Below, piece after piece: positions 24,001 to 27,000 of a stretch of DNA of 64,000 nt (position 1 is its first letter; the number at the start of each line of letters is the position of its first letter). This DNA is from Alphaproteobacteria bacterium (GTDB taxonomy: Bacteria > Pseudomonadota > Alphaproteobacteria > CAAHEQ01 > UBA3637). Location of the stretch: the NCBI GenBank assembly GCA_017466695.1, contig JAFTTR010000002.1, positions 166,832 through 230,831 on the forward strand. Direction: 5' to 3'. A program made the position numbers.

Positions 24001-27000
24001 CCATTATCATCGAGATTATTGCCGTCATTGCGCTTTTAGGTGTTATGGGCCCTTTGCTTTTTAGACAAATTTCTAATCGTAATGAAGAAGTTGAAAATAT
24101 TAATATTGCAACAGAAGTTCGCATTATCAAAGAAGCTTTATCTTCTTATATCCTTTCTCACCATGCTGAAATTGCAGCGACTGCTCGTCAAAATAGAGAA
24201 ACACTCAGTACAGATGTTGGTGTTGGTCAACTTAGCGACTTTTTACCAACAGGCTATGAAGATATCGCCACCGGTTATAGGATGAGCGTCTTGCTTGATG
24301 AAAACAAAGCTGGAGGTGATCGGTTGCAAGGATATATCGTCCCAGATTTAGAAGCACTTGGATTGCCTGAAATGAACATTCGCCGTGTTGCTCGAATTTC
24401 AAACCTTATTGGAGCTGATGGTGGAATTTATATTAATGGCGATCAATTCATCCATGGAACAGGTGGTGCTTGGCAATTAGAATCTGCAGAACTCGCAGCT
24501 AACTTACCAGCAGATGAACATACATTTGTCGCTACAACAGGTATGGATACATTTGTCCCAACTGTTAATTTCGAAGATTTTGATCCAAGTAATATTAATC
24601 TTCCTAATGATTTAGCCCTTGGCAGATTACATGCATGGAACTATTTTTCAGTTGGACAAATCCAAAATGGTATTGGCAGTTGTTTTACACTCAATCACCA
24701 TAATCCTGCAACTGGAACAACAGGGAATCCTGACGTGATTTTTGAAGCTGGGCAAAACGATTGTTCTCCTCTTTTTTGGGTTGGTAGCAGTACGGATGGG
24801 ACCATTTCAGGGGATGCCGTTGTTAAACAAAAATTACATTTAAGAAGTTCTCCAAATAATACTTCTTCCATTATTTTATCCAGTGGACATGATAAAGTGG
24901 ATTCAACACCTGAAGAAAGAAACCAAGCAAGAAGCATTAAAGTTTTTGATGTTACTGGAAAGGAAATTATTTCAATTGATGCAACAGGCTCCATTTCTGT
25001 CGTTGGGAGTACTGTTCTTAATACAGCGGACAGACTGACTGGAACTGGTGATAATGAAAAATTAACCATCAAAAATGGACGCATTGATTCTAACGTCCTT
25101 GCTCCTGCTACAAAAGAGGATATCAGATTATTCGAAAATCCAACAATTGGAGATATCACCTACTCTCTCGATCCAAGATACACTTCTGTTATGAATGACA
25201 TTAGACTTGAATCACGGGGTGGCGCAAGATTAAGCGATTTACTCCCAACCTATTCGTTAAAAGAAATCAAAACAATCTCGTCACCAGGCACAGCTGGGAC
25301 AACTGAAACAATTTATGTTCCCGCTTGCCCAAAATTACACTATCCTGCCATTATGGTCACACCAGTGAGTTGGCATCAAAACAGTGAACAAGAAATTATC
25401 GACACTGTTAAAGGAAACCTTACAGCTCAAGCAGATGGCACATTAAAGCAGTCAACAATTGTTAATCCTAACGCTGCTCATCCAGTGCAACCTCGTGTTA
25501 CAATTACATATAGTGACGCTGTCGATAATGATTATGTTCAAGAACTTCCAAGATCGGGAGGCACTTGGCACGTTTCATTAACTTATGTCAGAAATGAGCA
25601 ATTGGTTAACACCCCCATTCCAACCCAAATCAAGGCTATTGTACACACTTATTGCGTCTTTGATACTGCAAGCCGAGTAAACGCTGATAGGCCTGATTCA
25701 GAGAAATAAGGTTTGTGGAATAGCTTAATAACTTACAACCCCATTGGTTCCTCCTTCCAATGGGGTTTGTTTTCATTTTCTTCAATAATATACTTCTCGT
25801 AGCCCCTCTTCATTTTTAACGAGATTTAATCCAATTAGATAAAGCAAAATACCTTCTTGTCAAGGTACATAGACGTACATAAAAGAAGGCGTTTTGCTTA
25901 AGCTTGGAGATATAAAACTTTTAACGAGATATATCAAGAAAAAATCCCACTTAGGCGAAAAAAGTAGGCTTTCGTTTTAACGAGATTTAATCTAGTTAGA
26001 TAATGAAAAACGCCCACTCGCCGTGTGCATAGACGCACATAAGACAGCGTTTTGAATATACCACGCCCTAAAGATTTTAACGAGATATATATCAAGAAAA
26101 AATCCCACTTAGGCGAAAAAAGTAGGCTTTCGTTTTAACGAGATTTAATCTGGTTAGATAATGAAAAACGCCCACTCGCCGTGTGCATAGACGCACATAA
26201 GACAGCGTTTTGAATATACCACGCTCTAAAGCTTTTAACGAGATATATCAAGAAAAAATCCCACTCGCCGTGTACATAGACGTACATAAGAGTGGGATTT
26301 TTGAATTGAGATACTCGCTAAAAGCTTTAGGATTAGCGTGAGTAGAACTCGATGACCAAATTTGGTTCCATTTGAGTTGCATATGGAATATCAGCTAATT
26401 GAGGAACACGGATGAATTTACCTGTACCTGCTTTTGCATCAACTTCCATATATTCTGGAACTTCACGATCTGTAGCTGCTAATGCATCAATGACAAGAGC
26501 CATTTCTTTTGCTTTAGAGCGAATTGAAATTTCATCACCTGGACGAACAAGGTATGAAGGGATGTTAACTTTTTTACCATTAACAAGAACGTGACCATGG
26601 TTAACAAACTGACGAGCAGCGAAAACAGATGGCACAAATTTCATACGATAAACAACTGAATCCAAGCGTGTTTCTAAAATACCAACGAGGTTTTCAGAGC
26701 TATCCCCTTTACGACGAATAGCTTCAGCGTAGTATTTACGTAATTGTTTTTCGGATACGTTCCCATACACACCTTTTAATTTTTGTTTAGCGTGTAATTG
26801 AACACCGTAGTCTGTCAATTTTTTACGGTTGGCACCGTGTTGACCAGGACCATAATTTCTTTTTTCAACTGGAGATTTTGCTTTACCCCATAAGTTAACG
26901 CCTAAACGGCGGTCAATTTTAAATTTAGAACTTAATCTTTTTGACATAATATACCTTTCTTAAATAGCCAGCGCATCTGTAAAAGAAGAAAACAAACACG

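Follow-up and report, generated by a model that had tools for sequence, protein, structure and literature searches.

Between the converging ends of an operon encoding a pilin-like protein and of rpsD, the gene of ribosomal protein S4, the genome of an Alphaproteobacteria bacterium (GenBank assembly GCA_017466695.1, contig JAFTTR010000002.1) carries a short stretch in which hairpins with different stems follow one another in tandem. The locus raises the question of whether such a stretch is a set of small RNA (sRNA) genes with their own terminators, a row of amplified bidirectional terminators, or an element of the repetitive extragenic palindrome (REP) type or of the MITE type (miniature transposable elements with inverted repeats) that has expanded in place. 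All three had been proposed in a sequence-only reading of the 64,000-nucleotide segment analysed here (positions 166,832 to 230,831 of the contig, hereafter the window). We find that the last candidate fits best, as relatives of the hairpins are dispersed, TA-flanked and nested in other bacteria. We consider it somewhat probable (about 55%) that the array is a locally amplified and partly decayed cluster of a non-autonomous mobile hairpin element, MITE- or REPIN-like, whose intact copy serves as a terminator. The element family is previously undescribed and is found in at least four bacterial phyla, with a hairpin tip that is almost identical throughout.

Anatomy of the array

The tandem array occupies window positions 25814-26330 (+ strand numbering) and has a period of 158 bp, for which Tandem Repeats Finder gave 2.2 copies with 96% matches at 25919-26265. 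Every unit begins with the 12-mer TTTTAACGAGAT, here called the head, as the sequence-only reading had it, and six exact copies of this head are located at 25814, 25919, 25975, 26075, 26133 and 26233. The remaining near-matches to it within the 64 kb carry one mismatch each; shuffled sequences gave a mean of 0.72 matches, and 8 matches were reached in 0 of 100 shuffles. By the head shuffles and the 158-bp period, the array is thus above chance, and it lies where it had been placed, between the pilin-like operon and rpsD. On cutting at the heads, the order of units is B'(105)-A(56)-B(100)-A(58)-B(100)-A(103) nt, which confirms the alternation described before, with long B and short A units alternating three times. 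All units are in direct orientation, head to tail, and the spacing is, as had been said, not CRISPR-like. It may be noted that two features had escaped the earlier reading. One is an apex, GT(A/G)CATAGACG(T/C)ACATAA, common to all four hairpins of the array (4 matches against 0.07 expected), the stem sequences of which differ yet remain paired. The other is that unit 6 is a full imperfect palindrome of 105 nt. The head forms part of the left outer arm of this palindrome, and the right outer arm that matches it occurs a single time in the array, at the rpsD end. The array therefore consists of one complete copy (unit 6) and three shortened or damaged copies that bear the apex, with short apex-less A units in between. 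When the whole region 25776-26335 was folded and compared with shuffles, z-scores of -10.7 and -9.0 were obtained on the two strands.

Unit 1 (25814-25918, + strand) is a B-type variant in which the head is followed by the stem gcaaaataccttctt/aagaaggcgttttgc at 25844-25858 / 25883-25897, with the apex at 25863-25882 (AGGTAC...). Unit 2 (25919-25974, + strand), of the short A type, is made of the head, ATATCAAG and AAAAAATCCCACT followed by 23 nt, has no apex and gives no significant fold (z +0.8 and -0.8 on the two strands). Unit 3 (25975-26074, + strand) is B-type, with the head, TTAATCTAGTTAGATAATG, a 7-bp stem AAAACGC/GCGTTTT and a damaged right arm; its apex at 26023-26042 is the GTGC/GCAC variant. 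Unit 4 (26075-26132, + strand) is a 97% copy of unit 2 with an extra AT, and unit 5 (26133-26232, + strand) a 99% copy of unit 3 with the apex at 26181-26200. Neither unit 2 nor unit 4 folds better than its shuffles. The stems named in the sequence-only reading were recovered, gcaaaa..ccttctt/aagaagg..ttttgc in unit 1, aaacgc/gcgttt in units 3 and 5, and aaaaatcccactc/gagtgggattttt in unit 6. Only short, non-conserved open reading frames (ORFs) were listed across the array and unit 6. A conserved small ORF spanning the apex is ruled out, because the flanks of the apex differ between families.

The complete copy, unit 6 (26226-26330), is a rod whose outer arms CTAAAGCTTTTAACGAG / CTCGCTAAAAGCTTTAG (26226-26242 / 26314-26330) are 94% complementary and enclose a 13-bp stem and the apex. 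The stem AAAAAATCCCACTC / GAGTGGGATTTTT lies at 26253-26266 / 26290-26302 and is paired at 13/13 positions, and the apex GTGTACATAGACGTACATAA at 26270-26289. The calculated fold energies of the + and - strands are -50.6 kcal/mol (z -11.9) and -51.9 kcal/mol (z -10.9), respectively. The element ends 2 nt from the rpsD stop codon and its stem begins about 30 nt past this stop. On the + strand the 13-bp stem is accompanied by UUUUU and on the - strand by UUUUUU, and with an A-run on one side and a T-run on the other it looks like a bidirectional terminator, resembling the ordinary bidirectional terminators of the same 35% GC genome (for example the one at window 3634-3676). A consensus terminator scan gave 0 sites at unit 6 because its rule permits loops of only 3-8 nt and the loop of unit 6 is longer. 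We regard unit 6 as a likely bidirectional terminator by its shape. The proposal of amplified bidirectional terminators is not established; it fits only unit 6 and, more weakly, the B units, and units 2 and 4 have no significant hairpin.

Relatives of the hairpin in other bacteria

An exact scan of 185,579 representative genomes with the 18-mer of the apex gave 74 loci. About 10 of these were in unrelated coding or random contexts and about 60 at the tip of a long hairpin, while a few tens of matches would be expected by chance as estimated from the size of the database. In the roughly 60 genuine loci, the apex extends to GTGTACATAGACGTACATAA and several contigs are matched per genome. By the labels of the depositors, the hosts are at least nine Vampirovibrionales metagenome-assembled genomes (MAGs), one Holosporaceae MAG (4 contigs), three or four Clostridia MAGs (2 each), one Deferribacteraceae MAG, one gut 'proteobacterium' MAG and one Gammaproteobacteria MAG. 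The loci fetched in this work are labelled by L-numbers. Two loci of the MAG labelled Gammaproteobacteria (JBEISK; L017 and L052) are near-identical, flanks included, to Vampirovibrionales loci such as L040, and the label or the binning of this MAG is probably wrong. A scan of metagenomes added Firmicutes-like families and one relative from the window's own lineage (L117), a single hairpin preceded by TTTTCAACGAGAT at a locus other than that of the window. All of these fold as rods of 105-150 nt that carry the apex at their tip (z -5 to -12), and over the whole family the rod hairpins measure 85-150 nt. Three apex matches were found among viral contigs, two of them being the same Vampirovibrionales locus and one a chance match, and a distant-mode search of a plasmid collection gave no meaningful match.

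Evidence of mobility comes from the Vampirovibrionales elements. These are 148-150 bp long, have terminal inverted repeats that differ between subfamilies (14-20 bp in the relatives) and are generally flanked by TA. Near-identical 148-bp copies are found at different loci, and the density reaches 5-7 copies in 8 kb (L042, L056), up to about 1 per kb. On the reverse strand of L042 (240-540), an 8-kb locus with at least 7 copies, a complete element of one subfamily is nested inside the apex of another with the TA duplicated (junctions ...CTACA[TA]-element-[TA]ACAGAAC). From the TA flanks, the dispersed near-identical copies and the nested TA duplication taken together, it follows that the Vampirovibrionales elements behave as MITEs. 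On counting 62 non-redundant sites, 24 lie between convergent genes, 19 are in sense and 13 in antisense to the neighbouring gene and 6 lie between divergent genes, which is the usual distribution of REPs and MITEs without orientation bias. One MAG has, at two of its loci, a variant with an additional insert of 28 nt. No case of an apex missing from an otherwise intact element was seen, as all elements with the internal-loop motifs described below carry it. The idea of the apex as a separately mobile mini-hairpin is therefore unsupported, there being no apex-less element and units 2 and 4 of the array not folding.

Individual copies show further features. In L015 the 16S-23S spacer of a Vampirovibrionales rRNA operon holds one copy (3339-3423, - strand), which stops about 20-50 nt short of the 5' end of 23S. 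The annotated 23S gene holds, in its 3' part, a diverged copy (316-400, - strand; apex GUGUAG-ACAAA-CUACAC), and the two copies are rRNA-sense. The same arrangement is seen in the rRNA operons of L093, L024 and L114, and such copies could be intervening sequences or expansion segments. On an 84-kb metagenome contig, L111, two sense copies (2660-2747 and 1883-1969, both - strand) occupy the consecutive gaps rpsJ-rplC and rplC-rplD of the S10 operon, the second of which has kept the internal loop and has a diverged apex. The Holosporaceae copies at L044:2784-2875 and L064:4096-4187 adjoin the 3' ends of tRNA genes. In front of each copy stand a partly duplicated stretch of that copy's right arm and the 9-mer TAGATAATG, which is also found upstream of the B hairpins of the window. 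In a Vampirovibrionales MAG, a sub-threshold match to 6S RNA (L010:1812-2026, - strand; 30 bits, E 0.02) lies directly beside an element and may be a real 6S gene. A mini-hairpin module of 28-30 nt (..GATTGCTTGCAATCACTC..) is inserted at one position in L013, L054 and L045 and at another in L026 and L066, inside otherwise normal elements and nowhere else in the fetched DNA. On Firmicutes-like metagenome contigs, the element lies between a gene and a separate terminator. Here L091, L105, L107, L083, L097, L109 and L119 have an extra 5' palindrome, GT(T/C)GAC-NAA-GTC(A/G)AC, about 45-70 nt upstream of the apex, which covaries (TTGAC/GTCAA, TCGAC/GTCGA, ATGAC/GTCAT) and, being outside the rod, makes these elements asymmetric. 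The copies in L083 (apex at minus-strand position 915) and L106 (plus-strand position 1588) are flanked by a direct duplicate of a terminator hairpin, AGAGCCTAAAATTAGGCTCT (20/20 identical), and that in L119 (minus-strand position 3208) by ACACCAAGGCTTTTGCCTTGGTGT (22/24); these duplications are far longer than the TA duplication of Vampirovibrionales.

Conserved structure and covariation

The structure was derived by hand and scored on an alignment of 29 diverse copies. A length-matched alignment was required, as sequence-only MAFFT/RNAalifold on 112-nt windows recovered the apex helix only. Paired cells amounted to 83% against 70% in shuffles and about 40% with the partners slid, and the covariation score was 0.332 against 0.137 in shuffles (0 of 500 reaching the observed value) and 0.05-0.19 with the partners slid, although these statistics lean towards the structure tested since it was taken from one member and the sequences are related. 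Both sides have changed in 20 of the 27 pairs. In diverged copies, compensatory changes are also found within the apex stem itself, namely C-G to G-C (13 copies), U-A to C-G and G.U to A-U.

A covariance model built only from the copies of other bacteria found in the 64-kb window exactly the four apex-bearing units (E 8e-7 to 5e-3) and nothing else. The matches are at 25840-25901 in unit 1 (23.5 bits, E 0.005), 25995-26067 in unit 3 (25.1 bits), 26148-26230 in unit 5 (25.4 bits) and 26243-26315 in unit 6 (39.6 bits, E 8e-7). The same model found 124 copies in 682 kb of fetched loci and none in the loci with a chance 18-mer. When 108 distinct copies were aligned to the model, the apex proved to be conserved at about 95-100%. 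Outside it, the near-invariant positions are C-N-A-G-G-(A/C) on the 5' side and (G/A)-A-C-N-N-N-G-A-A on the 3' side, which form an asymmetric internal loop beside tandem G.A. In unit 6 this loop is kept except for one G-C pair deleted on both sides. A conserved fold beyond AT-rich terminator stems therefore exists across phyla, in the form of apex and internal loop, and it takes the element beyond a simple MITE. The near-invariance of these two parts implies a constraint on the family in its folded, single-stranded form, either RNA or single-stranded DNA (ssDNA). A kink-turn reading of the internal loop is ruled out because the pairs beside the C-G closing pair covary (U-A to A-U) as in an ordinary helix. 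In 58 of 76 copies, the strand with the apex sense gives a better fold than the complementary strand, the mean difference being 6.8 kcal/mol. This is not true of the units of the window, where the complement folds equally well or better.

With Rfam 15, the best hits of the window were to miRNA-type hairpin models at 15-21 bits with E above 1. Among 29 related loci, no family was found at the gathering threshold or at E up to 5. The known self-cleaving ribozyme classes, 6S RNA and signal recognition particle RNA of this database gave no match on the element family. No complementarity of the apex to 16S or 23S rRNA was seen.

Variation of the array between assemblies

An exact look-up of the S4 protein gave four further assemblies of the same locus, and a scan with the apex pattern gave a sister genome, L036, labelled 'uncultured Alphaproteobacteria'. 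As the array is seen in four independent assemblies, it is not an assembly artefact. Six heads are counted in the window and in L002, and four in L003 and in L004, a shortfall of exactly one A+B pair of 158 bp, although collapse of short reads may also affect such head counts. From this difference of one pair, the array is a variable number tandem repeat that differs in copy number between strains. In L036 the first unit differs from that of the window and the B hairpin AAAACGCCCACT/AGTGGGCGTTTT is intact, with a clean 13-bp stem followed by UUUU (-28 kcal/mol, z -7.3); part of this right arm is lost in the B units of the window. When the B stem of L036 is compared with the A stem AAAAATCCCACT/AGTGGGATTTTT, CG is replaced by AT on both arms, and the change is thus truly compensatory. 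Both the A-U and the G-C variant of the apex stem are present in the window. The claim that pairing has been preserved by compensatory changes is therefore borne out at both places. Among strains, the A/G and T/C variants of the apex occur in all four combinations, G.U combinations and A.C mismatches included, and this mixing has the look of recombination, or of selection having been relaxed, among the inner copies.

Origin of the array and competing explanations

To explain the array as an amplified mobile element, we propose that one element, or two adjacent ones, landed beside the rpsD stop codon. The alternating array, of which the inner copies would now be decaying, would then have formed by slippage or unequal recombination between the common heads and the common CCCACT..GCCGTGT segments. 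The intact unit 6, with its A-run, 13-bp stem and T-run, would stop the transcription of both convergent units and cap the 3' end of the rpsD mRNA. Several observations weigh against this explanation. In the lineage of the window no dispersal was seen, there being no other copy within the 64 kb, and in a related GTDB representative genome the apex is on one contig only. The fetched loci, about 700 kb in all, yielded no autonomous parent element, transposase or other mobilising gene, and every pair of inverted ends in them spans 148-177 bp. The flanks of unit 6, c-TA-AAGC...GCTT-TA-g, are compatible with a TA target-site duplication but do not demonstrate it, and termination by unit 6 is judged from its shape. 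Lastly, the terminal repeats are wholly different between subfamilies and the core is near-invariant across phyla, contrary to what a purely selfish MITE would show.

The last point leads to the possibility, which we hold to be rather unlikely, that the hairpin is a structured functional RNA module, protein-binding or catalytic (for example self-cleaving). The array would then be several copies of it, the apex and the internal loop its active or recognised parts, and the MITE-like behaviour in some phyla its vehicle. For this speak the conservation of the apex and of the invariant internal-loop positions, the covariation of the stem and, in diverged copies, of the apex stem itself (to which the A-U to G-C change of the window may be added), the better fold of the apex-sense strand, and the retention of one core by subfamilies with unrelated terminal repeats. 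The sense copies inside transcribed units (16S-23S spacer and 23S in L015, S10 operon in L111) and the Firmicutes-like copies between a gene and a separate terminator point the same way. However, no orientation bias against neighbouring genes exists (19 sense, 13 antisense), for the units of the window the complementary strand gives an equal or better fold, and the B units of the window tolerate A.C mismatches and a broken arm. No Rfam family, self-cleaving ribozymes included, was matched even at E up to 5-10, the covariation test is biased towards the structure, and ssDNA hairpins would yield the same signals. In a broader form, we suggest only tentatively that the apex hairpin GUGUAC-AUAGAC-GUACAU-AA, together with the loop C-N-A-G-G-A/C opposite G/A-A-C-N-N-N-G-A-A with tandem G.A, is a new cross-phylum class of structured nucleic acid carried on interchangeable MITE-like vehicles, which could be a functional RNA, protein-binding or catalytic, or an ssDNA module recognised by a mobilising enzyme. 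If so, its insertions reach rRNA genes, ribosomal-protein operons and terminators, and the array of the window is a tandem set of modules instead of junk. It is a real, if unproven, possibility that the core represents a new class of structured RNA.

That the units are tandem sRNA genes appears improbable to us. Tandem sRNA arrays are known, such as NsiR1 of Anabaena, and here every B unit would be transcribed from a promoter within it (TTAACG-16 nt-GATAAT) and end at the hairpin and T-run, giving RNAs of about 50 nt. Promoter-like sites are indeed present at 25977-26004 and 26135-26162, with the start falling at the foot of the hairpin, TAGATAATG recurs upstream of the Holosporaceae hairpins of L044 and L064, and the B hairpin of L036 has a clean 13-bp stem with UUUU after it. 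Yet such promoter-like matches occur at the level of shuffles (3 found against 2.5 expected), by which the earlier proposal of sRNAs with their own terminators is not established. In addition, the B hairpins of the window are damaged, units 2 and 4 have no fold and the copy number is not conserved. It is more doubtful still, and in our opinion very improbable, that the array is nothing but back-to-back bidirectional terminators duplicated between convergent units and unrelated to mobile DNA. The A-run, stem and T-run of unit 6 (more weakly of units 3 and 5), the position between convergent genes and the likeness to ordinary terminators of this genome agree with such an origin. It leaves unexplained why the same apex and internal loop are found in elements of about 150 nt in unrelated bacteria, at many loci, in both orientations and in some cases in operons or rRNA genes. 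Moreover, units 1, 2 and 4 lack the shape of a terminator, and the upstream operon already has an intrinsic-terminator-like hairpin at 25737-25775 (+ strand; AACCCCATTGG/CCAATGGGGTT, 11/11 pairs, then a T-rich run).

Flanking genes and significance

The last gene of the + strand operon upstream of the array (23967-25709 in the ORF list) encodes a protein of 580 aa, which gave no Pfam match and of which the pilin-like hydrophobic N-terminus is read from the sequence only. On the other side, rpsD (26333-26947, - strand in the ORF list; Pfam Ribosomal_S4, 1e-25, and S4 domain) has its stop codon at 26333-26335 and is convergent with the operon, the array lying in between. The genes at 22446-25709 and 27166-29978 encode, besides the 580-aa pilin-like protein, a neighbouring protein of 501 aa with a Laminin_G_3 domain (Pfam), a 427-aa protein without Pfam match and a 418-aa protein with ankyrin repeats. 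The set of Laminin_G_3, pilin-like and ankyrin-repeat genes suggests a host-associated alphaproteobacterium. The locus is ruled out as a replication origin or terminus, as no GC-skew switch is present at the array.

Taken by itself, the locus is of modest significance, as a tandem cluster of hairpins, variable in copy number, at which rpsD is probably terminated and which might be of use for marking strains. Of more weight is the wider finding that Cyanobacteriota (Vampirovibrionia), Alpha- and Gammaproteobacteria, Clostridia and Deferribacterota have in common an almost unaltered 20-nt hairpin tip and an internal loop, the surroundings of which have been replaced.

Comparison with known systems

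Some known systems do not apply. An array of type III toxin-antitoxin RNA (ToxI-like) is rejected because the array lies between the ends of convergent genes and no ORF is downstream on either strand. Integron attC sites are rejected as well, since TTTTAAC is opposed by GCTAAAA instead of GTTRRRY, the conserved part is the tip, no integrase lies beside the array and the relatives in other phyla have no AAC/GTT cores. The hairpin ribozyme and the LexA, CtrA, Fur and IHF boxes failed on spacing, sequence or context.

The family is closest in behaviour to MITEs of the IS630/Tc1-mariner type, which duplicate TA, for example Correia/NEMIS of Neisseria and RUP of Streptococcus pneumoniae. In common with these, the elements measure 100-150 bp and are non-coding and intergenic, and the whole element forms a hairpin, has TA flanks and duplicates TA (as in the nested copy), prefers the 3' ends of genes and convergent gaps and would be able to act as a terminator. 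Unit 6 has inverted ends without coding capacity. Multiple dispersed copies are found in the MAGs of Vampirovibrionales, Holosporaceae and Clostridia and were not seen for the lineage of the window in the 64 kb and the related representative genome, and an autonomous insertion sequence with the same ends was not found in the roughly 700 kb of fetched loci. The difference from IS630/Tc1-mariner-type MITEs is that here the centre is conserved across phyla and the ends differ wholly, which is the reverse of an ordinary MITE.

REP sequences, their clusters (bacterial interspersed mosaic elements, BIMEs) and REPINs, which are mobilised by REP-associated tyrosine transposases (RAYTs), are likewise extragenic palindromes with compensatory stem changes, enriched between convergent genes and proposed to act as single-stranded hairpins, and a mosaic tandem cluster of alternating units like ours is BIME-2-like. 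One Vampirovibrionales subfamily, and no other, starts with GTAG and the palindrome TGTCGACA at both ends, which recalls the GTAG/CGTC tag of the 20-40-nt REP palindromes. However, REP units alternate in orientation, whereas the units of the array are all direct and have no GTAG tag. In REP sequences, which are specific to a lineage, conservation lies at the stem foot, whereas the present family is conserved at the tip, and the TA duplication is not a feature of REPINs. BOX elements of Streptococcus pneumoniae (boxA-boxB(n)-boxC) share with the array a modular make-up with an inner module that is tandemly repeated to a variable extent, ends that pair into a long hairpin and a copy number that varies between strains. 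They differ in that their sequence is unrelated (no apex match in Streptococcus) and that they are dispersed in high copy in one genus, as opposed to a single locus.

The SDR4-6 repeats of cyanobacteria (small dispersed repeats) are very small dispersed hairpin repeats with modules of 20-30 nt nested in larger repeats (PMC5861425, PMC3116915), and are reported from Nostocaceae only (PMC5861425). The 28-30-nt module GATTGCTTGCAATCACTC at two positions of the Vampirovibrionales elements is similar to these, with the difference that the apex of our family was never found missing from an otherwise intact element. In the scan of representative genomes, the apex had no match in Neisseria, Rickettsia, Enterobacteriaceae or Streptococcus, and the element is therefore not a member of Correia, RPE, ERIC, BOX or RUP, from which it is set apart by this absence in the host genera and not by alignment of consensus sequences. 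Literature searches on the apex (12- and 14-mers, DNA and RNA spelling, both strands) gave no relevant paper, and those on MITEs or palindromic elements of Vampirovibrio and Holospora nothing specific. The array thus works like a MITE or REP cluster and yet stands outside every named family, as Rfam 15 gave no match, the apex is absent from the defining genera and the plasmid, phage and literature searches were negative. Known MITEs and REPs are lineage-specific, with the ends conserved rather than the centre. In the present family, it is the centre that is conserved and the ends that are interchangeable. The family therefore either hints at a means of mobilisation, so far unrecognised, in which a folded single strand is read, or is itself a structured RNA, missing from present catalogues, that spreads as a hitch-hiker.

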